Positions 11,118 to 64,000 are shown, counted from the first letter of the stretch. The stretch: 64,000 nt of DNA from Patescibacteria group bacterium (GCA_040902515.1 JBBDXB010000006.1:335814-399813); one strand, 5' to 3'. The notes: generated from the letters alone by a model not told the origin. A program made the numbers and translations.

Positions 11118-13031
11118 ATGTCACATGAACTCACACCGCGGGAGCAGGCAAAGCTTGAGGACTTCGTCCGCAAGGGCTTGGGCGGTACCGCGGATACGCC
11201 GCCGTCTCCGAAGGACGAGACCGGTTCATCGCTTCGGGAACAGGACGAGGAACAGCGCGAGAAGCTGTCGCCCGTAAGCCCGTCGGTCAAGAGCAGCAAA
11301 CGGGTCGTGCAGGAGTCGGGCTCGGCACCCTCGAAGCAGAAGAAGGATGACGATGACGATATCGACCTGTTCGCCCGCGGCAACGTGAGTCGGGTGGTCG
11401 ATGAGTTCAGGGCCGAGAAAGTCGAGAAAGAGCAGCGGGCCGTCGCCAAGAAGGCCGGCCTGCCTTTCGTGCGGCTGATGGGATACCCGATCAGTCCGGA
11501 GGTGCTCGCCCTGATCCCACGGGAGATCGCCGAAAAGTACGGCGTGATCTCCTACATCAAGGTCGGCAACAAGGTGCGGGTCGGTGTCCGGCATCCCGGC
11601 ACGAAACAGACCGCGCAGGTACTGGAATCGCTCAACCGGGCGACGGACCATGACTACCTCGTGTCGGCGATCGGTGAGGATTCCTATCGTTACGCACTCA
11701 AGCTGTATGACGAACTGCCTGCGGCACGCGCAGCCACGTCGGATGTCTCCGTGGACGAGAAGGAAAAGAAATCGTTCGAGACGGACATCCAATCGTTCCT
11801 CGATCTCCGGTCCCGGATCAAGGACGTGCCGACCACCAAGGTCGTCGACACGCTCCTGACCGGCGCGGTAAAGGTGGGCGCCTCCGACGTCCACATCGAA
11901 CCGATGGAGGAGGGGGTACGGATCCGCTACCGGATCGACGGCGTGCTGCACACCGTTGCCGACTTCAAGACCGACATCCTGCAGAGCCTCCTATCCCGGC
12001 TGAAGTTCCTGGCCAAGCTCAAGCTGGACGTGAACCGCCTGCCGCAGGACGGCCGGTTCACGATCACGGACAAGCAGCAGGACCGGAGCGTCGAGCTCGA
12101 CGTCCGGGTGGCGACGATCCCTTCCCAATACGGCGAAGCGATCACCATGCGGCTCCTGAACCGCGATGCGACGGGTATCACGCTCGACGCGCTCGGCCTC
12201 ACCGGGGAAGCCCGCCGGAAGGTGCTGGCGGCGATCGATCGGCCGCAGGGCATGGTGCTGGAATGCGGTCCGACCGGTTCCGGTAAGACCACCACGCTCT
12301 ACTCGCTGCTCACGCGGCTCAACGATCCCGGCAAGAAACTCGTGACGCTGGAGGATCCGGTGGAGTACCGGCTGCCCGGCGTGATGCAGTCGCAGGTGGA
12401 TCCCGCCCACGGGTACGATTTCGCGGAAGGATTCCGCTCGGTCCTCCGGCTCGACCCCGACGTGCTGATGATCGGTGAGATCCGTGACAGCAAGACCGCC
12501 GACCAGGCGGTGCAGGCTTCCCTGACCGGCCACATCGTGCTCTCGACGCTGCATACCAACGATGCCCCGACCGCGATCCCGCGGCTTACGGACATCGGCG
12601 TCCGGCCGTTCCTGCTCGCCAACGCGATCAACGCGATCATCGCGCAGCGGCTGGTGCGGAAGATCTGCATCCATTGCGCGGCCGAGACCAAGCCGGACAC
12701 GGCCACACTCGAGGCGGTGCAGGAGGTGCTCAAGGCGTTGCCGGAACATGCCAAGGACAGCCTGCCGCCGAAGAAAGAATGGCTGTTCATGAAGGGCAAG
12801 GGCTGCGCGCAGTGCAACGGCACCGGCTTCTCCGGCCGCATCGGCATCTTCGAGGTGCTGGTGATCAGCGACGAGATCGAGCGGTTGGCGATGAACCGCG
12901 CGCCGATCAGCCAACTCCGGCAAGCGGCCCACCGGACGGGTATGATGACGATGGAACAGGACGGCTTGCTGAAGGCCTTGGCGGGCGTTACGACGATCAG
13001 CGAGGTCTGGCGGGTCGCACGTAACGTCTGA
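11118..13031 (+). CDS. pilB: type IV pilus / type II secretion assembly ATPase (GspE/PilB family) with ~120-aa disordered N-terminal extension
   Basis: Walker A GPTGSGKTT, Asp and His boxes, tetracysteine motif (CIHCAAE…CAQCNGTG), T2SSE N-terminal domain. Confidence 0.9.
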   Translation: MSHELTPREQAKLEDFVRKGLGGTADTPPSPKDETGSSLREQDEEQREKLSPVSPSVKSSKRVVQESGSAPSKQKKDDDDDIDLFARGNVSRVVDEFRAEKVEKEQRAVAKKAGLPFVRLMGYPISPEVLALIPREIAEKYGVISYIKVGNKVRVGVRHPGTKQTAQVLESLNRATDHDYLVSAIGEDSYRYALKLYDELPAARAATSDVSVDEKEKKSFETDIQSFLDLRSRIKDVPTTKVVDTLLTGAVKVGASDVHIEPMEEGVRIRYRIDGVLHTVADFKTDILQSLLSRLKFLAKLKLDVNRLPQDGRFTITDKQQDRSVELDVRVATIPSQYGEAITMRLLNRDATGITLDALGLTGEARRKVLAAIDRPQGMVLECGPTGSGKTTTLYSLLTRLNDPGKKLVTLEDPVEYRLPGVMQSQVDPAHGYDFAEGFRSVLRLDPDVLMIGEIRDSKTADQAVQASLTGHIVLSTLHTNDAPTAIPRLTDIGVRPFLLANAINAIIAQRLVRKICIHCAAETKPDTATLEAVQEVLKALPEHAKDSLPPKKEWLFMKGKGCAQCNGTGFSGRIGIFEVLVISDEIERLAMNRAPISQLRQAAHRTGMMTMEQDGLLKALAGVTTISEVWRVARNV

Positions 13032-13041
13032 GCGCGGCACC

Positions 13042-14511
13042 GTGATACGAATACCCAACCGAACCAGAACGCTGATGATGATCGGGCTGCTCTGCCTGGT
13101 GATGACGTTCGGCGTGGTGTACGGAGGGCAGGCCGCTGCCCAGGACGGAGCGCAGGACGAACTCAGCCAGGCGCGTCAGGAAAAGGCGTTCTACTCGTCG
13201 CAGCAACGGCAGCTCGACGGAGCGCAGGCGGCGTCCGAAACGGACCTTGCGCTGGCACGGGCCGAGCTGGCGAAGCAACGCAAGGTCGTGGAGCTGAGCC
13301 TGGCGAAGGTCGAGCGCATCAATCGGGACCTCACCATCTTGAAGGCCCAACGCGGCCAGGCGATGGAAGAATCGTATATCTCCTCCGGCGGTGATAACAC
13401 GCTGCTTTATGCGCTGGTCGATTCCGGCTCTCTGAGCGAATTCCTGCGACGGGGGCAGTACACAATCTTCCTGGTCGACCATGCGGAAGGGCTGGTGGAC
13501 CGGATCGATGGCGAGATCCGGGCGCTGGATGACGAACGCCGCGACCTGATCACCAAGAAGAACGCGCTGGAGGCGGACATCGGCGCACTCAGCGAACGGG
13601 TCGCACTGCTCAAGCTGCAGCTGGAGGCTGCGGGAGAAAACCTGGAGCGGGCCGCCGCGCGGGAAGCGTACCTGCTCTCGGTCGCCAGCTTCCTGGAGGA
13701 AAACGATCGTGACTTCGTGAAGCGGAACGAGCCAGTCGGCGGACGGTTCGCGTTCGGCGGCGGCGGCACCGAGCACGGGCTCGGCATGTCGCAGTACGGC
13801 GCCAAGGGTGCGGCGGAACGCGGCCGGAACTACAAGGAGATCCTCTCGCACTACTACCGCGGGACGTCGATCAAGAAGGTCGGCAGCTTCGAGGTAGCTG
13901 GGCAGGGAGAGTCCGAGGCGTACGTCGCCCGGGTGGTAGCGGGAGAGGTGAGTGCCAGTTGGCCGATGGAGACACTCAAAGCCCAGGCGCTGGCGGCCCG
14001 GAGCTATGCATATCGGAACCGCGGGAATCAGGACTGTACGCCGCAGACGCAGGCCTGCGGTCAGCCGCGCGACCGGATCCGAGAGGCGGTCGAAGCTACG
14101 CGCGGTCAGGTGCTGACCTACGACGGCCAGGTCGTCCCCGCGTACTATCATTCCACGTCGGGTGGCTGGACGGAACACAACGAAAACGTCTGGGGCGGTA
14201 CGCCGCTGCCGTGGCTTCGGGGCGTGTCGAGTCCGTGGGAAACGGACTCACCCCACTGGTACTGGGAATCGAAGCACTATTCCCGGGCGCAGATGGAGGG
14301 AATCTTGAAGCAGGATCCGCGGACGTCGGTCGGGCGGCTCGAGACCGTCAAGATCATCGGGCGGGGCGTTTCGGGCCGGGTGACCGCGGTGGAGATCCGC
14401 GGATCGGCTGGAACCAAGACCGTGTCCGGCCCGCGCTTCAAGGCGATCTTCAATGCGTACTCGCCGGCAGACGAGCCGGGCCTCCGGTCAACGTTGTTCG
14501 GGTTCAGGTAA
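13042..14511 (+). CDS. SpoIID/LytB-domain protein with signal/TM and a long N-terminal coiled coil
   Basis: SpoIID-domain motifs (GGGTEHGLGMSQYGAKG; LKAQALAARSYAYRN; YHSTSGGWTE). Confidence 0.8.
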   Translation: MIRIPNRTRTLMMIGLLCLVMTFGVVYGGQAAAQDGAQDELSQARQEKAFYSSQQRQLDGAQAASETDLALARAELAKQRKVVELSLAKVERINRDLTILKAQRGQAMEESYISSGGDNTLLYALVDSGSLSEFLRRGQYTIFLVDHAEGLVDRIDGEIRALDDERRDLITKKNALEADIGALSERVALLKLQLEAAGENLERAAAREAYLLSVASFLEENDRDFVKRNEPVGGRFAFGGGGTEHGLGMSQYGAKGAAERGRNYKEILSHYYRGTSIKKVGSFEVAGQGESEAYVARVVAGEVSASWPMETLKAQALAARSYAYRNRGNQDCTPQTQACGQPRDRIREAVEATRGQVLTYDGQVVPAYYHSTSGGWTEHNENVWGGTPLPWLRGVSSPWETDSPHWYWESKHYSRAQMEGILKQDPRTSVGRLETVKIIGRGVSGRVTAVEIRGSAGTKTVSGPRFKAIFNAYSPADEPGLRSTLFGFR

Positions 14512-19052: not shown

Positions 19053-21074
19053 GTGATGAGGCGAATCAAGCAATTCGGTTATGAGCGGCTCGCCGCGTAC
19101 GCGGTGTTGGCGGCGGTCGGACTGATGATGCTCTGGGCGGTGTGGCCGTCATTGGGGGGCAGCGGCTACCTGGCTGCCTGGGACGCCGGCGGGCATTTGC
19201 TCAAGGCGGAGTACTTCGCCACGGAGCTGCTCCCGAGCCTGCGGCTCGACGGCTGGTTCCCGACCTGGCATGGCGGTTTCGACCTGTTCCAGTACTACCC
19301 GCCGCTGCTCTACTACCTCCTCGGTCCGCTGACGTACGTGTTCGCGCCGGAACTCGCGCTCCGGGTCTTCACCGCGGTGCTCTGGGTCGGCCTGTTGCCG
19401 GTGACGTACTACCTGCTCCGGAGTTTCGACCTCGGCCGGCTGCCGGCCGCCCTCGGGTCTGGCCTGCTGCTTTCGCTGAACGCGTCGTTCGGCGTGGGGC
19501 TCGGCGCGTTGTATGGCGTGGGGCTGCTTCCGAACGGCCTCGGCTTCATCCTCGCGATCTGGGCGCTCGGCCGGCTCAAGCGCGATCTCTTCGACCTGCG
19601 GCCGGCGTCGAAGGTCATCGTCACCGGCGTGGTGGTGGGACTGCTGCTGCTGGCGCACACGTTCTCCGCCTACTGGTTCGGTGCCGCGTCGATACTGCTC
19701 GGTGTCGCCGCGGCCTGGGGTCGCCCGCCCGGTCCGGTGGTCCGTCGTCTCGCCGTAGTGTTCGGGATCGGCCTGGCACTCTCCGCCTACTGGTGGCTGC
19801 CGCTGGCTGGCAGCTTCTCTGCCATGGGGGAAACGGGGGCGATCCAGGGACAGTCTCCCGGGGCGGCCCTGAAGGGGCTGCTATTGGCGGAGGATTCCGG
19901 TGGCTGGGTAATCAGCCTGCTGGCGGTCATCGGACTCGTCTACCTTTGGTTCCGCGGCCACTATCGCGAGTTGGGATTCTTCCTGGCGATCGGCGCGCTG
20001 ACCCTGCTGCTTTCGATCAACGCGATCAACGCGATCCTACCGTTCGGTGACGTGATCGGTTCCAGCCAGTTCATCCGGTTCCATGCGTTCTTCGCCCTGC
20101 TGCTCACGGTATGGGCGGCGCTTGGGCTGGCCGGGCTCTGGCATGTCGTCGGGCGATTGCCCCGGCATCGCCAAGCGCCGGGTACGGCCGCGTTCGCCCT
20201 GGCGCTGGGATTGATCATGGCCTTCGTGGTCCTGCCCACGCTCTCCCAGAAACGACTGTTCATCCGGGTGGTCGAGAATGGACCGACCGCCGAGCTGCAG
20301 ACGCTTGCCGCTGAACTGGAACCCCGGCTCCGCCCCGGCGACTTCGTCCTGTCCGAATTCAATTGGGAATCCCGTTTCCTGCTCGGCTCGCCGCACTTCG
20401 TGAACCAGCGGCTTCCGTGGGAAGTGCCAGGGCTCTGGGATCTCGACGGCAATTTCCCGGAAGGCACGCGCGGTTCCGCGCGGCCGGTCCTGATCGCGTC
20501 GGCGATGGGAAGCGAGGGATTCCTGGCGTCGCAGCGGGATTATCTCGAGGGGCGCGGGGTGCGCTTCATCATCAGCACGCATCCGTCCACCCGGGTCGTG
20601 CTCGACGCCCAATCCTGGCTCCGGGAAACGTGGAGCGGCACGGTCCTGTCGCTCTATGAAGTAACGGGATTCGACCGACCGTTCGGACTTCCCCGGGGTG
20701 TCGGTGCCCGGCTCCAGGATGTCTCTTTTGAAGACGGCCGATACCGGCTGGCGTTCGACCGGCCGGTGACGCTGCCGGCCGGGACCGCCTTCGCCGTAAG
20801 CCACCACCCGTGGCTGCGGGCGGAGGTGGACGGGGAGCGGGTCCGCACGGCGAGCCGTAACGGCCAACTTGTCCTGGCGGAATCCGCCAGGACCGGCTCG
20901 CTCACGATCCGCTACGCGCCGCCGGTAAGGGCCTGGGTCGCCCGGGCGGTCTCGCTGGCCGGCGTGGCCGCGGTGGCGCTCCTCGCCGCACGGCACCGGG
21001 GTGTCACGGCGTGGCTGGGGTCGCGAGCGCGAGGCCGGGGTCGGCGGAAACGCGCAGCCGCGCCGCGTCGGTAA
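19053..21074 (+). CDS. large polytopic membrane protein, putative GT-C-type glycosyltransferase (YfhO/PMT-like)
   Basis: About 12 predicted TM helices then a periplasmic-like C-terminal domain. N-terminal motifs (WDAGGHLLKAEYF…YYPPLLYY) resemble YfhO-like proteins. Function inferred only. Confidence 0.45.
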   Translation: MMRRIKQFGYERLAAYAVLAAVGLMMLWAVWPSLGGSGYLAAWDAGGHLLKAEYFATELLPSLRLDGWFPTWHGGFDLFQYYPPLLYYLLGPLTYVFAPELALRVFTAVLWVGLLPVTYYLLRSFDLGRLPAALGSGLLLSLNASFGVGLGALYGVGLLPNGLGFILAIWALGRLKRDLFDLRPASKVIVTGVVVGLLLLAHTFSAYWFGAASILLGVAAAWGRPPGPVVRRLAVVFGIGLALSAYWWLPLAGSFSAMGETGAIQGQSPGAALKGLLLAEDSGGWVISLLAVIGLVYLWFRGHYRELGFFLAIGALTLLLSINAINAILPFGDVIGSSQFIRFHAFFALLLTVWAALGLAGLWHVVGRLPRHRQAPGTAAFALALGLIMAFVVLPTLSQKRLFIRVVENGPTAELQTLAAELEPRLRPGDFVLSEFNWESRFLLGSPHFVNQRLPWEVPGLWDLDGNFPEGTRGSARPVLIASAMGSEGFLASQRDYLEGRGVRFIISTHPSTRVVLDAQSWLRETWSGTVLSLYEVTGFDRPFGLPRGVGARLQDVSFEDGRYRLAFDRPVTLPAGTAFAVSHHPWLRAEVDGERVRTASRNGQLVLAESARTGSLTIRYAPPVRAWVARAVSLAGVAAVALLAARHRGVTAWLGSRARGRGRRKRAAAPRR

Positions 21075-38347: not shown

Positions 38348-39913
38348 ATGGCACGAACCGCCCGGAAAATGCGACGGTTGCCCGGCTCCTTGCATAAGGT
38401 GCGGTTTTGGCCGGCCTTGGTAGCGGGTGTCGCACTGATTCTGCTCGGCATGTGGTTCTGGCTCGCGGTGATGCGCGCGTCGGTGAGCCAAGCGCTGCTG
38501 GCGGAACTTCCCCAGGACAGCCGGATTGCCGGGGTGGTCAAGCTTTCCGCGATCGACCTGGACACCATCGAACAGGTGAGCCAGTCGGCGAGCATCTATC
38601 CCGCGGGTGTCGAATCACTGGTCGCGACGCTCCGGGATGCGGCGCCGGCTGAACTGTTCGCCAAGGCGCTCGGACCGGAGGTCGCGTTCGCGGACGTACA
38701 CGGGCATTCTCTGGCCGTGGTGACGATCCGAGACCAGGCGTCGTTCGAGGAGCTCTCCGGAAAGGTCGGGGCACGGCTGGGGGAGCCGGGCATTTCCCAT
38801 GCGGAGTCAGCCGAGCGGGGCCGTGTGCCGTTCTTCAGCGCGAAGCTGGCGGAATCAGACCGGACCGTCTTCGCTTACCGCGAGGACGACCTGCTTTTCG
38901 TCGCGACGGATCCCGAGCCGATACTGGATGCGCTCGCCCAGCGGCAGGGGTTTGACGCGACCACGGCGTTCGAGGACGTTTCCGGAAGGTTGCCGGGCGG
39001 AGCGGACGCGTACGTCTTCCTGGACGGCCGCCTGGCGGACCGCTATCCCCGACTGGGATTCTCGCTGATCGGCGTGGCCATCCGTGACGAGGATGAACAC
39101 CTGCGCCTACAGGCGGTCAGCGCGGACCCGCCCGAGGTCAACGTATCATTACCCGCCGCTTCCGGCGGCCTGCTGCCCGCGCCCGAACAGGCGACGCTCG
39201 GCATATCCGGCACGAGCGTGCTCCGGTATCTCCAGCTGCTCGAAGCACAGCGCAGCGAACGGGCGCTTCCGGAGGTGATCAAGCTGCAGAACGGGATCGC
39301 GTCACTGAACCGTCGGCTCGGAGTTGACCTGGAGACGGACTATCTGGCCGCCGCTGACGGGCGGTTCACGTACGCGCGGTTTGCGGACGGGAAATCGCAA
39401 CGGTGGATGACGTTATTGGAGTTCGAGGGTCCGGAGGTGGCCCGTACCAAGGTCGAAAGCTTCGAGCAGCTGGCGCGCGAGAAACTGACCGTGCCAGTCC
39501 GTCGAGAAGTGGTCAAAGTGCTGCCGGATGGTTCCCGCTCACGCGAGATCGAATCGGAGAAGCAGGAGCGGCTGAAGTTCGGCGCGGTGGAGGTGGAAGA
39601 CCAGCCGGCCAAGGCGGTCAAGCTGCCGGAACTCGGCCGGATCGTCTGGCAGGTCCGTGACCGGTTCCTGCTGGTCGGTGACAGCGAACGGAGCGTTGCC
39701 CGCTTGGTCCGGACGATCCGGAAACCGACGGATACCGTCGATGGCGAAGGACAGCTTGCCGTCCGTCTGGATCTCTCGAAGGCCGGGACGTTGACTGGTG
39801 GCGAGGACGTGATTTTCAGTTGGATCCTGGCGACCCGTCCGGCAGAGGGCGAGCTCACCCTGGGCAAGGAGAGCGGCGTGCTTTCCGGATTCGTGACGTT
39901 CGCGGAGCGCTGA
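38348..39913 (+). CDS. hypothetical membrane-anchored protein (521 aa)
   Basis: N-terminal TM helix and a large extracytoplasmic domain. Stop overlaps the nfo start by 1 nt. Confidence 0.5.
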   Translation: MARTARKMRRLPGSLHKVRFWPALVAGVALILLGMWFWLAVMRASVSQALLAELPQDSRIAGVVKLSAIDLDTIEQVSQSASIYPAGVESLVATLRDAAPAELFAKALGPEVAFADVHGHSLAVVTIRDQASFEELSGKVGARLGEPGISHAESAERGRVPFFSAKLAESDRTVFAYREDDLLFVATDPEPILDALAQRQGFDATTAFEDVSGRLPGGADAYVFLDGRLADRYPRLGFSLIGVAIRDEDEHLRLQAVSADPPEVNVSLPAASGGLLPAPEQATLGISGTSVLRYLQLLEAQRSERALPEVIKLQNGIASLNRRLGVDLETDYLAAADGRFTYARFADGKSQRWMTLLEFEGPEVARTKVESFEQLAREKLTVPVRREVVKVLPDGSRSREIESEKQERLKFGAVEVEDQPAKAVKLPELGRIVWQVRDRFLLVGDSERSVARLVRTIRKPTDTVDGEGQLAVRLDLSKAGTLTGGEDVIFSWILATRPAEGELTLGKESGVLSGFVTFAER

Positions 39914-45016: not shown

Positions 45017-46837
45017 TCACGTAGCCGGCTGGCAGGGACCGTCCGCGGTATCGCAGACGACTTCCTGCCAGCCACCGGCGGAGAAGCTTCCCCCGGGACC
45101 GGCCGAAAAATCGATGTCGGCGAGACCGGTCAGGTACGTGATCGTCGCGTTGTTGTTCAGTTGGAGCCGCTGGGCGGTCAACGCATTGGCCCCTCCATTG
45201 TTACTGATCTGAATGGTACCGAAGGGGGCGGCCAGGACGATGCTGTCCGAGTTGTTGGAGGAATGGATGGCATTTCCGGAAGCATCGCTGGTGGCGAGCA
45301 ACAGGAAGCTGTTCGGATCGCCGCTTCCCTCGAATTCGACATTATTGGAAATGGTTACCTGTTCGTCGGCGACGATCGCTCCGCTGGAGCTGCCATAGTC
45401 CGGGTGGAGCAGGATATTGACGTTGTTGGAGAAGAGGATGGTGCCGGTCACCCAGACGGTTCCGGTCATGATCAACGTCGCACCATTCTCGACGTTCAGG
45501 TTGCCTTCGATTTTCATCGGGCCGACAGTGCGGGTCTGGCCGAGTGGAATCGTGTAATCACCGGTATGTGTCGCGCCTGCCGACGCCTGGTTCTTGAAAT
45601 CGACCAGGTTGGCTTCGGTGATCGGCAGATCCTTTTGCGGAGGATCCTCGCTACCGGGGAAGCGGGTGCCGCCGACGCTTGAGCCGTCATCCACCTGGTA
45701 GTAGGCATCGCCCGTCACATCAAGGTCCTTGATCTCGTGGGCGTGGACGTCGCCGCCGACATCCAACCGTTCCGCCCGGGTTGGCGGGCTTCCCATGAAC
45801 GCCTTGAATCCGAAATCCAGGTCCGCATCCTCCCAGTCGTGGTTGCCGTTCGAGCGCCAGCGATCGGAAAACATCCCTTGTCCGTCGGGGTATCCGTCCT
45901 GAGCTCCCCAGGCCCAGTAGTTACTCGGGGAACCGGATGTGTCTATGACGATCCAGTAGTCCTGCCCCCCGTCCAACGTCGGAGGATTCGAAAGGCTGAC
46001 TTGGATGAACTGCAAGGTATTCCCGACGGAGGCGGTGCTCAGGGTGCCGCTGGCAACCTGGTTTCCCGAGGGTTCGCCTCCGGCATCCCTGACGATGCGG
46101 ACCGTCGCGTTCGCAGGATTACCGAATTTCCGCACCAACAGGCCGACCTTGATCAGCTTGTCGCTCGCGGAAGTATCCGGCTTGAAGCGCTGTGCGACGT
46201 CAATGACGTCAGGATTGGTGGAATGCCCGAAGACGAATTCCAGGGGATCGGACGGGACGTGTTCCGGCGTCGCTTCGAGCGCGGCACCCCCGGCCACCCA
46301 GACGTCGCCGGTCACCTGTGCGCCGTTGTTGCCGACATGGTCCCCATTGGAGTAGGACGAGCCATGGATGATGGCATTGTTATTCATGTGGATGCCACCC
46401 GCCCCGGCCTGCAGCGCGTAGGCGAAATCCGCTTCCACGGAAGGAATCGGACAGTTGCTTACCTGGATCCGCCGGACCAGATCATCCACGAATCCGGAGG
46501 CGGTGACCTGCTTCGCCGATCCGCAGCTTTCGGTGGAAACGGTCTCGACGACCGTTTCCACCCGATCGGTATCACTGAACGTCGTGGTAAGCGTCGTGCT
46601 GGTGCTTCCGTATGACGCATTGCGCTTCATCTGGAGCAGGGCGTCCTCAGTGCCGCTCTCCGCGTGATAGAGGCTTTGGACGGAGCCGACCCGCTGGTTC
46701 GAGATGCGGTAATTGATCACCGAGGTCGTTACCATCGCGGCGGCGATCACCACGACGATCGCCGAATACATGCCGACGCCGAGGATGCCGATTACGCCGC
46801 GCTGGTCCGTCAGCCGTCGGATGCCCGCGCGCCTCAC
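45017..46837 (-). CDS. large pilus-associated protein (606 aa; putative minor-pilin/tip or PilY/PilX-like), last gene of the prepilin operon
   Basis: N-terminal hydrophobic anchor. Gly/Asn/Thr-rich beta-type composition. ATGA overlap with the upstream prepilin gene. Confidence 0.55.
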   Translation of the reverse strand: MRRAGIRRLTDQRGVIGILGVGMYSAIVVVIAAAMVTTSVINYRISNQRVGSVQSLYHAESGTEDALLQMKRNASYGSTSTTLTTTFSDTDRVETVVETVSTESCGSAKQVTASGFVDDLVRRIQVSNCPIPSVEADFAYALQAGAGGIHMNNNAIIHGSSYSNGDHVGNNGAQVTGDVWVAGGAALEATPEHVPSDPLEFVFGHSTNPDVIDVAQRFKPDTSASDKLIKVGLLVRKFGNPANATVRIVRDAGGEPSGNQVASGTLSTASVGNTLQFIQVSLSNPPTLDGGQDYWIVIDTSGSPSNYWAWGAQDGYPDGQGMFSDRWRSNGNHDWEDADLDFGFKAFMGSPPTRAERLDVGGDVHAHEIKDLDVTGDAYYQVDDGSSVGGTRFPGSEDPPQKDLPITEANLVDFKNQASAGATHTGDYTIPLGQTRTVGPMKIEGNLNVENGATLIMTGTVWVTGTILFSNNVNILLHPDYGSSSGAIVADEQVTISNNVEFEGSGDPNSFLLLATSDASGNAIHSSNNSDSIVLAAPFGTIQISNNGGANALTAQRLQLNNNATITYLTGLADIDFSAGPGGSFSAGGWQEVVCDTADGPCQPAT

Positions 46838-55968: not shown

Positions 55969-57003
55969 ATGTCCAAAGAGACCTACTATGACGTCCTCGG
56001 CGTGTCCCGGACGGCGACCGCGGAGGAAATCAAACGCGCATACCGGACGTTGGCCCGGGAGTATCATCCGGACGTCAACAAGGGCGACCAGGCGGAAGAG
56101 CAGTTCAAGCGGATCAACGAGGCGTACGGTACGCTGTCCGATTCGTTGAAGCGCGCCGACTACGACCAGCAGATCGCGGATCCCGGCGTGCGGGGCGGGG
56201 GTGTGTCCGGCGCCGGCGCCGCGCGTCCGGGGGCATCCCAGGCCGAGGCTGCCGCGGCACAGGGGCCCTACCGGCAGGCGCTGATCCGTGCGGCACTCGT
56301 GCGGACGATAGCCTGGGGACTGATCGCGGCCCTGGTTGGCGGTCTGCTCGCCCTTTCGCTCGAGTACCTTACCGCCACCCGGATCGATCCGTCCGCCGGA
56401 GTCCTGGGTGCCATACCGGGGCTGGTCGTGGGGTTGCTCTGGGGAGCGGACTATAATTTCAAAGTGGAGACGTTCCTGGGTACCGGTTGGCTGAGCCGGA
56501 GCTACACGCTGGCTCGGACGATCCTGATGAGCCTCGGCCTCGCCTACTACGGCGGCTTGCTTGGAGGCACAATCGACGCCGCGGCGGGGACGGGTATCTT
56601 CACCGTGTCCCTGATCCTGCTCGGCGTCCTGTCCGGTGCCGTGGCCGGATCCGACGGCGATACCGTCGAGAAGCTCCGGAGCGGCCAGGGCCGGTTCAAC
56701 CTGTTCTACACGCTGCTGCGCGGCGCCGAAGTCGGCGCGCTCGGCGCGGCGGTCGGCGCGGGTCTTGGCGGCGTCCTGGCGATCGCGGGCAGAGGCGGTG
56801 CCTTCGGCTGGACGGTGCTCACCGGATTTGCGCTCGGCATGATTATCGGCTCGATCAAGCCGCCGAACCTGGCGGCGTATGCCAGCTATGCCTCAGCTTC
56901 CGTCAAAAGCCTGATCATAATCCTGATGGTCCTCGGTGCCCTCGTGGTAGGCGTGTTGTTCGGGGCGATCGCGGGACCGGAGCTGTTGCCGGACGCGCGA
57001 TGA
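55969..57003 (+). CDS. J-domain protein with polytopic membrane C-terminal region
   Basis: N-terminal J domain with HPD (YYDVLGV…[10 protein letters not shown]), then Gly/Ala-rich TM segments. Confidence 0.75.
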
Positions 57004-57045: not shown

Positions 57046-58197
57046 ATGCCTACGAGCAAGGATTATTATGACATTCTCGGTATTTCCCGACAGGCCTCGG
57101 TGAACGACATCAAGCGGGCCTATCGGAAGCTGGCGCATAAGTACCATCCGGACAAAGGCGGTACCAAGGAGGACGAACGGAAGTTCCGTGAGGTGCAGGA
57201 AGCGTACGAAGTGCTTTCAGACGACAAGAAGCGGGCGGCGTACGACCAGTTCGGCCACGCCGGCGCGGCCGGTGCGGGGGCTGGTCCGGGTGGTTTCGGT
57301 GGTCAGGGCTTCGGCGGATTCCAGGGCGGTGCCGAGGGGGTCGACTTCGGCGGGTTCGGTGACATCTTCGAGCAGTTCTTCGGCGGGTTCGGCGGCGCCG
57401 GCACGCGTCAGCGCGGTCCGGCGCGTGGATCCGACCTGCAGGTGAACGTGACCGTCGATTTCGAAGAGGCCGTCCGCGGTGCGGACAAGGAAGTGTCGCT
57501 GACACGGCGTGCGGCCTGCGGAACCTGCAGTGGCAATGGCGCCGCTAAGGGCGCGAAGATCGTCACGTGCCAGCGCTGCAACGGCCAGGGCCAAGTGCAG
57601 GTCACCCGGCGGACGATCCTTGGCACGATGGCCCAGGTAACTCCCTGTCCGGAATGTCACGGCGAGGGCAAGCGGCCGGAAAAGGCGTGCCCGACCTGCG
57701 GCGGCGAAGGACGCGTCCAGAAAAAGGAGACGCTCAAGGTGAAGATCCCGGCCGGTATCGATGACGGCCAGACGATCCGGGTGCAGGGAGCCGGTGAGGC
57801 CGGCGAACGGGGAGCCCCGTCCGGCCATGCGTACGTGGTCGTCCGGGTGAAGCCGTCCAAGGCGTTCGAGCGCGACGGTGCCGATCTCAGGATCGCCGTG
57901 CCGGTCAGCTTCGCCCAGGCCACGCTCGGCGCGACGATCGAAGTGCCGACGCCGACCGGTGATACCGCCACGTTCAAGATTCCCGCAGGGACCCAGAGCG
58001 GCACGTCGTTCACGCTGAAAGGCGAGGGCATGCCGAAACTCGGCTCCGCCGCCCGCGGCGACCTGGTCGCGACCGTCCAAGTGGTCGTGCCGAAGAAGCT
58101 CTCCGCGGAGGAAAAGAAGCTCGTGGAAGCGCTTGGCAGGCATGATGACATGGATGTCGGAGGCAAATCCGGCCTCTTCGGCAAGCTCGGATTGTAG
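57046..58197 (+). CDS. dnaJ: molecular chaperone DnaJ (type I)
   Basis: J domain with HPD, G/F region, four CxxCxGxG zinc-finger repeats, C-terminal domains. Confidence 0.95.
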
Positions 58198-58925: not shown

Positions 58926-58998
58926 TATGTGGGCTGCCCCGGTAGCTCAGTTGGCAGAGCAGTGGGCTTTTAACCCATGTGTCGGGGGTTCGAGACCC
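58926..58998 (+). tRNA. tRNA-Lys (anticodon UUU)
   Basis: Acceptor GCCCCGG/CCGGGGC, D-arm GCTC-AGTTGGCA-GAGC, anticodon loop CUUUUAA, T-arm GGGGG-TTCGAGA-CCCTC, discriminator A. Confidence 0.85.
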
Positions 58999-59047
58999 TC
59001 CCGGGGCACACTTGACCAAAATTAAAGGCGTGCTAGGTTTAGAAGCT

Positions 59048-59345: not shown

Positions 59346-59915
59346 TCAGCCGGGGAGCACACCGGGATACTCCCGGACATCGAACGGTCGCATCCCAAGT
59401 CCCTTGGCGGTTTCCAGGTGCGCGGGTCGTACGTCCACGAACGGCAGCCCTTCCCGTGGATGTTGGAGCCGCTCCGCGGAAAGCTTGAGGAGCCCCGGAT
59501 AGTCGCGGTTTTCGTCGAGTTCCGAGCCGATCACATGTACGTGCAGCAGCTCGTCGAGCTGATAGCGTTTCCGGAAGTGGCCCACGAAATCCGGCGTGGC
59601 ATCGGATACCAGTCCAAGCACATGCGTCGGTGATTGTACGCGGATCCGGCCGAGTACCGACTGCTCCATCTCTGCGCCGTTGATCGCGAACATAGACAGC
59701 GTATCGGTTTCCTCAAGCGCCAGCTTGAGCGCGATCCCTCCCCAGTGCTCGCTCTGGGTGATCTCGCCGCGGTCGTAGGCCGGCTTGGAGTCAGCGATCG
59801 CAGCGGCCACATCGTCTTCCGGACGTTCCAGCGCCTCGGCGATATCCTCCGCCTGCGACGTAAGGTCGTCGCGCACGATCACGGACAGGTCGTAGAGGAT
59901 GGTCGGTTTTTGCAT
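59346..59915 (-). CDS. putative HAD-like hydrolase (189 aa)
   Basis: C-terminal (F)VDVRPAHLETAKGLGM resembles HAD motif IV. Assignment is weak. Confidence 0.45.
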   Translation of the reverse strand: MQKPTILYDLSVIVRDDLTSQAEDIAEALERPEDDVAAAIADSKPAYDRGEITQSEHWGGIALKLALEETDTLSMFAINGAEMEQSVLGRIRVQSPTHVLGLVSDATPDFVGHFRKRYQLDELLHVHVIGSELDENRDYPGLLKLSAERLQHPREGLPFVDVRPAHLETAKGLGMRPFDVREYPGVLPG

Positions 59916-60013
59916 ACGAGCAGCATATCAGACCACCCAGGCGTGGATGCGGTGGGGAGGCTTGACAAACGGCTCTTTTTTAGCTATGCTTAGACAATTT
60001 TCTAGAAACCAAT

Positions 60014-63000
60014 ATGACACGGAGCACCAGAAGGATCCTCGCCCATTCGGCTATCGTCACGGCCTGCGTAGCAGTGACGGCGGTGGCCGGTGTCGTCCTT
60101 CTCTCCCAGCAGGCCGAGCCGGCAGCGCCGGCGGCACTCGACGCCGTCGAGCGGATCGAGCGCGTTACCGAAGTCGCCGGCCAGCCCGTCGAACGGGTGG
60201 AAGTGGGAGGCCGCGAAACCAAGGCGGCGGCAGGTCGGCTGGTCGTGACCCTCGAGAGCGACGAGGCAAAGGCGCGGTTCGGTGACCGGCTCACGCCGAC
60301 TACCCTGCCCGACACCTACCTGCTGGCAATCGACGGTCCGCTCGAGTCGGAGCGAAGGGCCGTGGCTGCGGTCCCGGGCGTAACGCAGGTGACCCCCGAC
60401 TACGTGGTCACCGCCACCCGGACGCCGGACGACCCGCAGTACTCGTCTCACCAGTGGAACCTGCCGAAGATCGACGCTCCGCAGGCGTGGGATCGGACCA
60501 TCGGGGACGCATCTCTCCTGTCCGCCAATATCGATACGGGAGTGAACCGGAGCCACCAGGACCTGACCGCGCGGATGTGGACGAATGCCGGCGAAACGCC
60601 CGACAACGGCGTCGACGATGACGGCAACGGCTACATCGACGACTACCACGGTATGGACTTCGTGAACGCGACCCAGCCGGAAAGCGGCGTCTTCCAGAAT
60701 GACGCCGACGGTCCGCTGGACGACCACGGCCACGGCACCCTGACCTCGTCGGTTACCGGTGCCGCGACCGACAACGCGACCGGCATCGCCGGCGTGGACT
60801 GGCAGGCGAAGATCGTCGCCGTGAAGGTCCTCGACAGCGATGGGTTCGGCTTCTTCTCAGACGTGGCCGAGGGTATCCGGTACGCTTCCGTCGTCGGCGC
60901 GAAGACCGCGAATCTCAGCCTGGGTGCGTTCGGTGTGGATAGCGACGCCATGACCGACGCCGCCATCGAGTACGCGACGGGGCGCGGGACCATCGTGGTC
61001 GCCGCCTCCGGCAACGACGGCTCCTCGACCGTGGTGGATTACCCGGCCAAGCACCCGGACGCGATCGCCGTCGGTGCCACCGGTTCGACCGACGTCCGGG
61101 CCAGTTATTCCAACGGAGGTCCTGAGCTGGACCTGGTCGCGCCAGGTTCCGGCATCCGCGGCGCGGGACTCGGTAGTACGAGCTACATCAACGCCAGTGG
61201 CACCTCGCTCTCCACGCCCCACGTGGCCGGCGTGGCGAGCCTGCTCAAGAGCATCAACCCGGGACTGACCACCGCCCAGGTAAGGAGCATCCTCCACAAG
61301 TCGGCGGACAAGGTGTCCGGCATGAACGGGGCCACCCGGACCGACCTCTACGGGTACGGCCGGCTTAACGCCAAGCGCGCGTTGGACCAACTCAAACCGT
61401 ATTCGGCACGTTGGGCCGGACAGTCGGCGCACCCTTCGATCAGCCCGGGGGAGGACGCGACGGTGCATGTGGACTTCAAGAACACCGGCTCGCTGGCCTG
61501 GTCGAATACCGGCTCCAACCCGGTCCGGCTTGGTACCAGCCACCCTCGTGATCGCTGGTCTCCGTTCTATAACGATACTTGGTTGACACCGACCCGGACG
61601 GGCAGCTTCACGGGCCGTGTCGAAGGCGACGGTTCGGTCACGACTACCGGCACCATTGAGCCCGGCGAGACCGCCCGGTTCAGCTTCACGATGACGGCGC
61701 CGCCGCGGACCACCGTAGCGAACCTGCGGGAATACTTCCAGCCGGTCGCCGAAGGCGTGACCTGGCTCGAGGATTGGGGAATGTATCTGGAACCGACGGT
61801 GTCGGGGGAAACCTATGCCTACGAGTATGTCAGCCAGACCAACACCAGCGGCGTGATGCAGCCGAACGAGCGGCAGGAGGTGACGATCGACCTGAAGAAC
61901 ACCGGGACCGCCGCCTGGCGCAACGACACGTTGTTTGACTTCAAGCTGGGCACCAGCCGTACCCGGGACCGTTCGAGTATCACCTACAACGACACCTGGC
62001 AGGTCCCGAACCGCATCGGTGCGTTCAAGGGGACGGTGTCCGGCGGTGTCCTTACCGAGACGAATGCGGTCGAGCCCGGCGAGACCGCCCGGTTCCGGTT
62101 CGATTTCAAGGCACCGTCCGGTGGCACCAATCACAAGGAATACTTCCAGCCGTTGATCGAGCGCTTCGCCTGGCTGAAGGACATCGGCATCTACTGGTCC
62201 ATCGTCGTGCCATCGCAATCGTACGATTACCAATGGGTGAGCCAGAGCGCCCATCCGGTGATGGAGGAAGGCGCGACCGCCACCGTAAGCATTCGCCTCA
62301 AGAACATCGGTTCCTCGAACTGGCAGTCGGACGGATCGAACCCGGTCCGGCTCGGCACCGACCGTCCGCAGGACCGGCTTTCCGGATTCACGGACGGCGG
62401 TTCGGCCGCGGGCTGGATCGGCATGAACCGGGTCAAGCTCACGCGCAACGTGACGGACACCGGGAAGAACGTGGACGGCGAGACGACCGTCGCTCCCGGC
62501 GAGGTCGGTGAGTTCGAATTCGATGTAGTAGGAGATCCGGCCCCCGGGACATACCGGGAGTATTTCCGGCCCGTTACCGAGGGAATCGCCTGGATGCGCG
62601 ACATCGGCATCTACTGGGACATGACCGTCAGCCACCCGATTGACGTGGGCCTGGCCCAGCAGGGGTCGATGACGTTCACCTCGGACGGCACCGTGACGAT
62701 CCGCGACGTCCTGGGGGCGGTCCGCGGTACGGCCAGCGCCGGCCAGACCGTCACGCTCCGGTATACCGGCTCCTCTTACCAAGCGGTCCTGCCGAGCGGG
62801 ACGATCACCTCGTGCTGCGCGTTGACCGCTGAGCAGGGTGCGAACAGCCTCTTCACGATCTCGGATCTGGCGAACGGCGGTTCCAACAACCGCTTCCGCG
62901 GATCGCTTGCAATCCGGAACGGGACCGTTGGTAGCTGGGCGGTGAACACGCTGAACCTTGAGGAATACCTGCGCGGTCTCGGTGAAGTGCCGGATTCCTG

Positions 63001-63709
63001 GCCGGCGGAAGCGATCAAGGCACAGGTGGTGGCAGCCCGGACCTACGCCGCCCGGCAGATCAGCGCTCCGAAGACCGACATCTTCGACCTCTACGACGAT
63101 ACGCGCGACCAGGTCTATTCCGGTTACAACCGTGAGGCGGTCCAGCCGAACCACGTGAGCGCGATCAGTGCGACCAAGGGGAAAGTGATCAAGCGCGATG
63201 GAGCGCTGATCCAGGCCTTCTATAGCTCGAACGCGGCGGGACATACCGCCTCGAACGAGGAGGTATGGGGCGGCAGTCCGATCAATTACCTGCGCGGCAA
63301 GTCCGACGGCTACTCGCTGGCGTCCGACACCGACCATCTCTGGCCGGACACCACCTCCCGCGACACGATCAAGACGAACTACGGCTACGGCTGCACGGTG
63401 ACCGGCGTCAGCGTTCCGGTCACCTACACCTCCGGCCGGATGAAGACGGTGCGGCTCTCCGGGAGCGGTTGCGCGACCAAGGATTACACGCTGGCGGCGG
63501 ACACCCACCGGAGCCGGCTGGGCCTGCCGAGTTCGCAGGTGACGGGTGTCAGCAAGAGCGGCACGGACTTTGTCTTCTCGGGGAAAGGGTTCGGTCACGG
63601 CATCGGCATGAGCCAGTGGGGTACCTACCGGCGGGCCGCGGCCGGCCAAGGTTACGCGACGATCCTCGGGTTCTACTACACCGGTGTGTCGATCACGAAC
63701 CTGTACTAG
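60014..63709 (+). CDS. giant secreted protein (1231 aa): N-terminal peptidase S8 (subtilisin) domain, four tandem ~120-aa beta-sandwich-like repeats, and a C-terminal SpoIID/LytB domain
   Basis: Signal peptide. S8 catalytic triad motifs (DTGVNRSHQDL; HGHGTLTSS; GTSLSTPHVAG). Four repeats (…FKNTG…W…NPVRLGT…PGETARF.F…EYFQP…W). C-terminal SpoIID motifs (AQVVAARTYAARQ; YSSNAAGHT; GHGIGMSQWG). Confidence 0.9.
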   Translation: MTRSTRRILAHSAIVTACVAVTAVAGVVLLSQQAEPAAPAALDAVERIERVTEVAGQPVERVEVGGRETKAAAGRLVVTLESDEAKARFGDRLTPTTLPDTYLLAIDGPLESERRAVAAVPGVTQVTPDYVVTATRTPDDPQYSSHQWNLPKIDAPQAWDRTIGDASLLSANIDTGVNRSHQDLTARMWTNAGETPDNGVDDDGNGYIDDYHGMDFVNATQPESGVFQNDADGPLDDHGHGTLTSSVTGAATDNATGIAGVDWQAKIVAVKVLDSDGFGFFSDVAEGIRYASVVGAKTANLSLGAFGVDSDAMTDAAIEYATGRGTIVVAASGNDGSSTVVDYPAKHPDAIAVGATGSTDVRASYSNGGPELDLVAPGSGIRGAGLGSTSYINASGTSLSTPHVAGVASLLKSINPGLTTAQVRSILHKSADKVSGMNGATRTDLYGYGRLNAKRALDQLKPYSARWAGQSAHPSISPGEDATVHVDFKNTGSLAWSNTGSNPVRLGTSHPRDRWSPFYNDTWLTPTRTGSFTGRVEGDGSVTTTGTIEPGETARFSFTMTAPPRTTVANLREYFQPVAEGVTWLEDWGMYLEPTVSGETYAYEYVSQTNTSGVMQPNERQEVTIDLKNTGTAAWRNDTLFDFKLGTSRTRDRSSITYNDTWQVPNRIGAFKGTVSGGVLTETNAVEPGETARFRFDFKAPSGGTNHKEYFQPLIERFAWLKDIGIYWSIVVPSQSYDYQWVSQSAHPVMEEGATATVSIRLKNIGSSNWQSDGSNPVRLGTDRPQDRLSGFTDGGSAAGWIGMNRVKLTRNVTDTGKNVDGETTVAPGEVGEFEFDVVGDPAPGTYREYFRPVTEGIAWMRDIGIYWDMTVSHPIDVGLAQQGSMTFTSDGTVTIRDVLGAVRGTASAGQTVTLRYTGSSYQAVLPSGTITSCCALTAEQGANSLFTISDLANGGSNNRFRGSLAIRNGTVGSWAVNTLNLEEYLRGLGEVPDSWPAEAIKAQVVAARTYAARQISAPKTDIFDLYDDTRDQVYSGYNREAVQPNHVSAISATKGKVIKRDGALIQAFYSSNAAGHTASNEEVWGGSPINYLRGKSDGYSLASDTDHLWPDTTSRDTIKTNYGYGCTVTGVSVPVTYTSGRMKTVRLSGSGCATKDYTLAADTHRSRLGLPSSQVTGVSKSGTDFVFSGKGFGHGIGMSQWGTYRRAAAGQGYATILGFYYTGVSITNLY

Positions 63710-63772: not shown

Positions 63773-64000
63773 GTGAAGCAACCGACCTTTATACTGGCGG
63801 CGGGCTTCGTGCTGGGAATCGCCGTGGCGTCGTGGCTGCCGCTGCTGTTGCTCATACCGTTCGGGTTGATTTCGCTCGTGATGCGGGCACCTGCACTGGC
63901 GGTCGGTCTCGGCCTTGGAGCGGCCCGGCTGGTTTCCGTCCCGCTCGAACCTCCTGTCGACGACCTGTCGGTCCTTGCCGGAAACCGCATGGAAGTCAGA
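63773..64000 (+). CDS. 5' end of a polytopic membrane protein gene (possibly ComEC-like), truncated by the window edge
   Basis: GTG start. VKQPTFILAAGFVLGIAVASWLPLLLLIPFGLISL… resembles ComEC N-termini. Very partial. Confidence 0.3.
   Translation, partial: MKQPTFILAAGFVLGIAVASWLPLLLLIPFGLISLVMRAPALAVGLGLGAARLVSVPLEPPVDDLSVLAGNRMEVR

Follow-up and report, generated by a model that had tools for sequence, protein, structure and literature searches.

The subject of this report is a gene at positions 60014 to 63709 of a 64,000-nucleotide stretch of DNA from a Patescibacteria group bacterium (GCA_040902515.1, JBBDXB010000006.1:335814-399813); we refer to the whole stretch as the window. The gene lies on the plus strand and is one open frame without interruption for a protein of 1231 amino acids (aa). 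An S8 serine protease domain is joined in this protein to three repeats of the FW type, a beta-rich linker, and a C-terminal SpoIID/LytB domain. Repeats were located with a hidden Markov model (HMM) built from the repeat units, and the modules lie as follows.

60014..63709, plus strand: whole open reading frame (ORF), 1231 aa, in the order S8, three FW repeats, linker, SpoIID/LytB
60014..60118, plus strand: N-terminal basic and hydrophobic segment, aa 1-35, a candidate Sec signal peptide or signal anchor, read from the sequence
60119..60433, plus strand: pro-region-like segment, aa 36-140, the least conserved part (mean 37% identity)
60434..61393, plus strand: subtilase (S8) catalytic domain, aa 141-460, with D174/H240/S398 and oxyanion N334
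61397..61807, plus strand: FW-type repeat 1, aa 462-598, found by the repeat HMM (E 1e-73)
61811..62218, plus strand: FW-type repeat 2, aa 600-735, found by the repeat HMM and as Pfam N_BRCA1_IG
62219..62635, plus strand: FW-type repeat 3, aa 736-874, found by the repeat HMM; inserted-loop subtype (GW..NR.KLTRN.TD..K)
62636..62938, plus strand: beta-rich linker domain, aa 875-975, all-beta in the model
62939..63706, plus strand: SpoIID/LytB domain, aa 976-1231, with Glu E991 in GLGEVPDSW and a C-terminal GFGHGIGMSQWG motif

An earlier reading of this DNA (here, the original prediction) had proposed the fusion while warning that a frameshift might have merged separate genes near 61400 or 62900. 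We found that the fusion is real. About 20 orthologue clusters (P0002-P0021) run colinearly across both junctions, from S8 into repeat 1 (about 61400) and from the linker into SpoIID (about 62900). These clusters, which came from the proposed search for the same fusion in other genomes, are full length, are 82-45% identical to the window protein, derive from many independent samples and assemblies, and match the same three Pfam families. The window protein itself has a 100% identical NCBI entry (P0001, from a Patescibacteria metagenome-assembled genome, on a contig of 638,718 bp), deposited with a generic name only. Mean identity to the window protein is 62% for S8, 50-58% for the repeats, 47% for the linker, and 60% for SpoIID. 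Because identity is similar across modules, all of them are apparently constrained, and the repeats are not hypervariable. The content of guanine plus cytosine (GC) is 0.61-0.68 across the gene, in line with its surroundings and with no anomaly. One candidate for an unfused form was rejected: P0121 (617 aa, FW plus SpoIID, 53% identity) begins within repeat 2, at nucleotide 64 of its contig, and is a gene call clipped at the contig end.

Domain parsing, one of the checks that had been suggested, placed S8, N_BRCA1_IG, and SpoIID in the window protein via Pfam and NCBIfam. Ahead of these, a segment equivalent to aa 1-35 is present in all orthologues; its hydrophobic stretch is consistent with export and agrees with the earlier claim that the protein is secreted. 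The following aa 36-140 gave no Inhibitor_I9 match in Pfam, and from their position ahead of the protease, we infer that they form a propeptide. Residues 173-449 matched Peptidase_S8 (PF00082) with an E of 4.6e-42 and a score of 144.7 bits (cutoff 21.8). The Asp/His/Ser triad noted in the original prediction was borne out, with D174 (DTG), H240 (HGT), and S398 (GTS) invariant among 24 relatives, as is N334 (GND), and all four aligned to thermitase. With triad and oxyanion Asn complete, the sequence of the protease looks like that of an active enzyme.

Thermitase (1THM) was the nearest solved relative of the S8 domain by sequence (E 1.3e-46), and the triad and oxyanion Asn are common to the window protein and the thermitase-type subtilases. 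Compared with thermitase, the window protein adds an Asp/Gly-rich insertion of about 40 aa (DDDGNGYIDD) between the Asp and His motifs and a C-terminal extension of about 770 aa. A separate insert of about 110 aa stands directly before the catalytic Ser motif in P0010, P0012-P0014, P0016-P0018, and P0022-P0025. It holds a conserved GATGY(K/R)(V/I/L)YR(T/S) and is FN3-like by eye, and most proteins that have it also carry a fourth FW repeat.

The tandem repeats with W, PGE, and EYF motifs described earlier are present, but there are three of them, each of about 136 aa, where four of about 120 aa had been counted. Pairwise identity among the three is 39-49%, and each carries the W, PGE(T/V)..F, and EYF(Q/R)P motifs. 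The count was taken from the HMM of the three units; BLASTP of the protein against itself gave the identity match only. Residues 875-975 are not a fourth repeat but the beta-rich linker, a segment shared with FW-SpoIID proteins and with SpoIID/LytB proteins that stand alone. Four repeats do occur in orthologues of 1464-1483 aa, whose protease domain also holds the insert of about 110 aa.

Pfam recognized N_BRCA1_IG (PF16158) at residues 614-712 (E 2e-11; 44.8 bits against a cutoff of 28). Repeat 2 alone exceeds the threshold in the window protein, repeats 1 and 3 being recognized via the repeat HMM only, while scores in relatives reach 93 bits. Repeat 2 has four Trp residues, two of them invariant and one nearly so in 38 aligned repeats. 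An AlphaFold model of repeat 2 made from this alignment had a predicted local distance difference test score (pLDDT) of 96.6. Its top Foldseek matches, all with probability 1.0, were the human NBR1 FW domain (4OLE), the fungal Nbr1 FW domain bound to Ams1 (7VQO), and ILRUN (6VHI). Template modelling (TM) scores were 0.55-0.66 when normalised to the repeat; with the stand-alone 4OLE and 6VHI as the reference, they were 0.71-0.74. The repeat region matched no PDB sequence, and the repeat profile gave only a marginal match to NBR1 (E 0.39), so that the fold call rests on the fold search. This search of the repeat unit, also among the checks proposed, points to the NBR1/ILRUN-type FW beta-sandwich as the predicted fold of the repeats.

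FW domains of eukaryotes bind proteins (PMC9233695), and the bacterial FW proteins in the literature are cytoplasmic XRE-FW regulators (PMC3357945, PMC9233695). Trp positions are conserved among repeats of the window type, for which PF16158 domains of NBR1 and ILRUN are the best fold match. Unlike the eukaryotic domain, the window repeats are tandem, about 30 aa longer, fused to hydrolases, and, by prediction, extracytoplasmic.

The linker at 875-975 matched no Pfam family. For the domain that follows, identification as SpoIID/LytB held up well: TIGR02669 (SpoIID_LytB, NCBIfam) covers 976-1228 at 194.7 bits (cutoff 83.3), and PF08486 (SpoIID) covers 975-1059 (E 1.2e-18; 67.9 bits against a cutoff of 23). 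This part aligns with the solved SpoIID proteins 4RWR and 5I1T/5TXU, and E991 corresponds to E101 of Clostridioides difficile SpoIID, the "GEM" glutamate. Experiments have defined E101 as the catalytic residue (PMC6221140), and all 21 SpoIID-bearing orthologues keep E991. An AlphaFold model of repeat 3, linker, and SpoIID (m81dca5248bda) had a mean pLDDT of 81.4, and in Foldseek it matched 4RWR and 5I1T with E of about 1e-16 and TM (target) of 0.67-0.71. With the catalytic Glu kept and a SpoIID fold in the model, this domain also looks active. Hence the central claim of the original prediction, a protease and a glycan-strand-directed enzyme on one exported polypeptide, stands as far as intact-looking active sites and a conserved fusion can carry it.

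The fold is shared with SpoIID of Bacillus anthracis and C. difficile (4RWR, 5I1T/5TXU), a lytic transglycosylase that serves in engulfing the forespore, at 28-29% identity over the catalytic domain, as are the motifs AARTYA, DQVY.GY, and GFGHG.GMSQ.G. The Zn site of the C. difficile protein (H134/C140/H145/C146) has no Cys/His counterpart in the window protein, as in the B. anthracis type. Canonical SpoIID has a single membrane anchor; the window domain is instead preceded by the protease, three FW repeats, and the beta linker.

We next consider how widely this architecture occurs. One genome per GTDB species (about 185,000) was scanned with the alignment of repeat 3 and SpoIID, a scan reliant on two peptide patterns. 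Full-length repeat-plus-SpoIID matches were found at five loci (L009-L013), labelled Candidatus Saccharibacteria, Candidatus Saccharimonadia, Patescibacteria, or, for L010, "bacterium." The matches ranked after these were confined to the SpoIID domain and reached at most 39% identity; they came from Fusobacteria, Firmicutes, and other groups. The lineage is an uncultured one of Candidatus Saccharibacteria (TM7)/Saccharimonadia. The best 120 matches to residues 875-1231 were ordinary SpoIID/LytB proteins of 260-625 aa, with no other protease fusion among them. The closest nonorthologous relatives of 875-1231 are stand-alone Patescibacteria proteins with the order FW3-linker-SpoIID, 33-38% identical over the whole stretch and carrying their own signal peptide.

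The repeat is far more widespread than the fusion. A word-indexed search with the repeat alignment gave one new protein only and was superseded by an exhaustive profile search, in which 8,488 representatives of 50%-identity clusters matched at E<=1e-3 and 1,065 at E<=1e-30. When the 145 top-ranking new representatives were scanned with local HMMs, 13 matched SpoIID and 3 matched S8. Pfam showed the order Amidase_2, FW repeats, SpoIID in all seven of the proteins tested, and further architectures comprised FW-SpoIID alone, GSDH-FW, a glycosidase-like domain with FW, and FW arrays with an unassigned N-terminal part. S8-FW proteins without SpoIID are commoner than the SpoIID-bearing form. The fusion is one member of a large, undescribed modular Patescibacteria set with the plan enzyme, FW repeats, and, optionally, SpoIID.

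Members of this set also stand side by side as separate genes. At 3276-11354 of L088 (GCA_019347875.1, Parcubacteria), adjacent genes encode an FW-only protein (906 aa, five repeats), an S8-FW protein (844 aa, three repeats), and an Amidase_2-FW protein (939 aa, four repeats); this trio sits in a neighbourhood of sugar-nucleotide and polysaccharide biosynthesis. In another Patescibacterium (L091, 2479-10775), divIC comes directly after an FW-SpoIID gene, and three genes separate the latter from an Amidase_2-FW gene on its upstream side. These three encode a 145-aa product, a 675-aa protein with a weak match to the anthrax-lethal-factor-like (ATLF) domain, and a 66-aa product, and the locus resembles an unfused amidase-FW-SpoIID architecture beside a division gene. 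The Saccharibacteria genome of orthologue P0016 holds, at 6186-9593 of L017, a 1135-aa paralogue made up of a signal peptide and eight tandem FW repeats.

Neighbour joining of the S8 domains, without support values, gave a tree in which all SpoIID-bearing forms fall in one clade relative to S8-FW outgroups. The SpoIID-less P0022-P0025 are nested within that clade, beside the four-repeat forms. On the simplest reading, an S8-FW gene would have gained an FW-linker-SpoIID cassette once, at the base of one Saccharimonadia clade, and SpoIID would later have been lost or replaced in one subclade. S8-FW without SpoIID is thereby predicted to be the older form. The position of the S8-FW gene 3' of the dnaK operon is kept even in a relative at 36% identity, which suggests S8-FW as the old core of the gene.

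Around the fusion gene, the following features were located.

58936..59009, plus strand: tRNA-Lys(UUU), found with ARAGORN; single, upstream of the fusion gene
59346..59915, minus strand: divergent conserved gene of 189 aa; HAD-like by weak or faint matches in orthologues only
59962..59990, plus strand: sigma-70-like promoter candidate, TTGACA-17-TATGCT, 10/12; a consensus match only, 24 nucleotides before the ATG
63773..64000, plus strand: start of comEC (membrane N-terminus) with a GTG start, cut by the window end

A tRNA-Lys island had been placed after the gene; there is instead the one tRNA-Lys(UUU), upstream. The ComEC-like start reported downstream was confirmed, as the N-terminus encoded from 63773 is homologous to the DUF4131+Competence (comEC) genes of orthologous loci, from which the context beyond the window end was also taken. 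A gap of 63 nucleotides, in which a terminator-like site is absent, separates the stop codon of the fusion gene from comEC. Upstream in the window lie LepA, HrcA, GrpE, DnaK, two ORFs without assignment, a DnaJ-domain membrane protein, and DnaJ, and then a small membrane protein, the tRNA gene, and the divergent 189-aa gene. The DnaJ-domain membrane protein (55969-57003, plus strand, 344 aa) has an N-terminal J domain and then a long Gly/Ala-rich hydrophobic region; it stands directly upstream of the canonical DnaJ gene (57046-58197), and the pair is conserved in orthologous loci.

Saccharimonadia loci as distant as 46% identity again show the order divergent small gene, S8-FW(-SpoIID), comEC, bPH_2, RuvB, RuvA, also where the SpoIID domain is missing. 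Among the Saccharimonadia loci looked up, L007 has one extra 372-aa gene between the fusion gene and comEC, the others are directly adjacent, and the short contig L008 stops just past comEC. For S8-FW genes in other Patescibacteria, adjacency to comEC was not seen, and in the orthologue locus L093 (contig ERR1883819_86700) two small ORFs and, after them, bPH_2 come next to the fusion gene, while comEC is absent. Because adjacency fails in these cases, we count it as a weak sign of a functional link; the gene order may simply be inherited. In L001, L003, L007, and L008, comEC is split into a DUF4131+Competence gene and a separate, overlapping metallo-beta-lactamase gene. In L005 and L006, which have S8-FW without SpoIID, the separate metallo-beta-lactamase gene is also missing, an observation on two loci that may reflect shared ancestry.

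The window holds a second SpoIID/LytB gene at 13042-14511 (plus strand, 489 aa, 189 bits to TIGR02669), directly after a gene for a PilB-like T2SSE ATPase (11118-13031, plus strand). In its product, a hydrophobic stretch at the N-terminus is accompanied by some 200 aa that by eye resemble a coiled coil. Compared with the SpoIID domain of the fusion, that of this protein is circularly permuted: GxGHGxGMSQ (residues 233-280), normally C-terminal, stands before the catalytic GEV segment (301-446). Elsewhere in the window, ORFs at 19053-21074 (plus strand, 673 aa), 38348-39913 (plus strand, 521 aa), and 45017-46837 (minus strand, 606 aa) matched no Pfam family, and the last of these matched a "choice-of-anchor R" domain in NCBIfam (E 1.9e-11). 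GC near the fusion gene is 0.59-0.69, compared with 0.63-0.65 in the closest relatives (L009-L013) and 0.51-0.54 in more distant orthologue loci. A GC content of 0.59-0.69 would be high for Saccharibacteria.

From these observations, we favour an enzyme that is exported by the Sec route, tethered to the wall, and equipped with two activities, with which it would remodel the envelope of the cell that makes it, and we put the probability of this reading at roughly 0.5. The cell would belong to a Saccharibacteria lineage with a wall of the Gram-positive type. The N-terminal segment would direct export, after which the pro-region would be removed. The FW repeats would hold the protein on a wall polymer and serve as a spacer; we propose tethering because the FW repeat carries many unrelated exo-enzymes, as Gram-positive wall-binding repeats do. 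The SpoIID domain would cut the glycan strands of peptidoglycan as a lytic transglycosylase, probably best on strands already stripped of stem peptides by a separate amidase, as with SpoIID and SpoIIP. The S8 protease would trim wall-associated proteins or peptides, or it may process the polyprotein itself. Such an activity on the cell's own wall could serve growth, septum splitting, or the making of openings for surface machines.

What favours the own wall as target is the use of the FW repeat as a general tether, the divIC neighbour in L091, and the setting of the fusion gene among core genes (the dnaK operon, comEC, and ruvAB). This context evidence leans mildly to the own wall and is not decisive. 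Precedents exist for the enzyme. SpoIID needs denuded glycan and E101 (PMC6221140). The SpoIID homologue of Waddlia chondrophila has a septal role in a nonsporulating bacterium and also cuts intact peptidoglycan (PMC6635528). LytB of Bacillus subtilis, the SpoIID-family partner of the LytC amidase, was reported to be without peptidoglycan hydrolysis itself (PMC10653849).

Several points weigh against an own-wall enzyme. Its activity, localisation, and ligand are all predicted, and the case draws on distant relatives (a single divIC adjacency) and on the general tether use of the repeat. The second SpoIID gene of the window (13042-14511) could be the housekeeping enzyme, and the SpoIID module of the fusion was lost in one subclade and hence is dispensable there. 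S8 proteases are not known to cut peptidoglycan stem peptides. The LytB report shows that a SpoIID fold alone is no proof of lysis (PMC10653849). Finally, the Saccharibacteria in culture live as obligate epibionts, and it has been proposed that lytic transglycosylases breach the envelopes of hosts (PMC11665869).

This last point leads to the main alternative, which we consider a serious rival, though less probable than own-wall remodelling: a lytic effector directed at the host. Displayed or released at the contact site, the protease would strip host surface proteins, and SpoIID would open the host peptidoglycan. Nutrients and DNA would be released, the DNA being taken up via a co-transcribed ComEC channel. 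The epibiotic habit of the cultivated members, whose hosts are Actinobacteria, the proposed use of lytic transglycosylases to compromise host envelopes (PMC11665869), and a second SpoIID gene that could take over housekeeping all fit such an effector. So do the position of comEC, directly next with no terminator-like site in the gap and likewise placed in all looked-up Saccharimonadia loci but L007, the protein-binding habit of eukaryotic FW domains (PMC9233695), and the adhesin-like look of the eight-repeat FW-only paralogue. However, the comEC adjacency fails for S8-FW in other Patescibacteria and in L093, and competence was dispensable for growth in the one Saccharibacterium tested genetically (PMC11665869). 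Nor do repeats that are not hypervariable speak for host attack. The FW repeat, moreover, also tethers dehydrogenase and glycosidase domains and adjoins divIC in L091, and the fusion gene sits in a core-gene neighbourhood rather than a variable island. A more elaborate version, in which the FW repeats dock on an actinobacterial host and the co-transcribed comEC completes a "lyse-and-import" module, or, bolder still, in which S8 strips stem peptides, we hold to be unlikely.

An improbable alternative is that one chain substitutes for the SpoIIP/SpoIID pair, with S8 stripping or shortening stem peptides and the fused SpoIID cutting the denuded glycan. S8 and Amidase_2 do hold equivalent positions in the enzyme-FW-SpoIID proteins, and SpoIID requires prior peptide removal (PMC6221140, PMC6635528). 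On the other hand, neighbouring S8-FW and Amidase_2-FW genes suggest activities that are complementary, not interchangeable, and S8-FW without SpoIID is commoner and apparently older. Subtilases are endopeptidases of L-polypeptides and are not known to cleave either the MurNAc-L-Ala bond or stems of D-amino acids, which also counts against this idea.

A SpoIID of the sporulation type, belonging to engulfment machinery, or an endolysin of phage origin is very improbable. Although the domain matches solved sporulation SpoIIDs, the sporulation equivalog TIGR02870 (NCBIfam) scores 115.4 bits, well below its cutoff of 234.75, and neither SpoIIP nor SpoIIM was seen among the scanned ORFs of the 64-kb window. 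Saccharibacteria are not known to form spores. As for a phage, a scan of viral contigs gave one weak, SpoIID-only match at 36% identity and no fusion, GC is normal, and phage genes are absent nearby. That a frameshift or misassembly near 61400 or 62900 merged two or three genes is refuted as far as sequence comparison goes and has next to no probability left, given junctions that are continuous across independent samples and assemblers, a third-codon-position GC of 0.84 that is usual for genes of the window, and stand-alone FW-SpoIID proteins that bear their own signal peptides where the window protein has no internal one.

The protein bears on two poorly understood matters, how Patescibacteria build, divide, and maintain their walls with tiny genomes and how epibiotic Saccharibacteria open host envelopes. 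The protein and its relatives offer a testable toolkit in which a common tandem FW repeat carries glycan cutters of the SpoIID type as well as a protease and an amidase, and the fusion forms show which activities work together. So far, the FW domain has been treated in the context of autophagy receptors of eukaryotes and of a small number of bacterial regulators in the cytoplasm; here, it is predicted to be a very common extracytoplasmic tether. We rate this wider family of FW-tethered enzymes, and the question of their target, as more interesting than the single fusion. Were the protein to attack hosts after all, it would be a candidate lysis effector tied to DNA uptake.

The architecture had been put forward as not described. 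In the literature searched, we found no paper on an S8-SpoIID fusion or on secreted tandem FW arrays, and to that extent the statement holds, but the protein was already deposited and belongs to the larger enzyme-FW-SpoIID family. It is a new domain combination inside a familiar design, the modular cell wall hydrolase in which wall-binding repeats stand between two enzymes, and not a new kind of system. Pfam and NCBIfam found no amidase or glycoside-hydrolase family in the window protein, and Pfam found none of the CbpD-type fratricin domains (CHAP, SH3b, choline-binding), leaving comEC adjacency as the sole likeness to fratricins.

Among known enzymes, SpoIID of W. chondrophila resembles the window protein as a SpoIID enzyme of a nonsporulating bacterium with a reduced genome, and it sets a precedent for a role in division. 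Unlike the window protein, it is a single domain acting on peptidoglycan of the Gram-negative type, with neither protease nor repeats. In B. subtilis, LytB and LytC join wall-binding repeats (CWB2-type) to a SpoIID-family domain and an amidase, respectively, and their genes are adjacent. The FW-SpoIID and Amidase_2-FW genes of Patescibacteria, as well as their fusion, mirror this arrangement, although the repeats of LytB (CwbA) are unrelated to those of the window protein and LytB has no fused protease. Staphylococcal Atl has the order signal peptide, propeptide, amidase, three repeats, glucosaminidase and is split proteolytically into two enzymes. The module order of the window protein is alike, with an export signal, a pro-region, a first enzyme, three repeats, and a second, glycan-cleaving enzyme. 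No module is homologous, with S8 in place of the amidase, FW in place of the Atl repeats, and SpoIID in place of the glucosaminidase, so that the likeness is architectural only; the closest analogues of Atl are the Amidase_2-FW-SpoIID relatives. Taken together, the layout would parallel that of Atl in staphylococci and of LytB, LytC, and WprA in B. subtilis.

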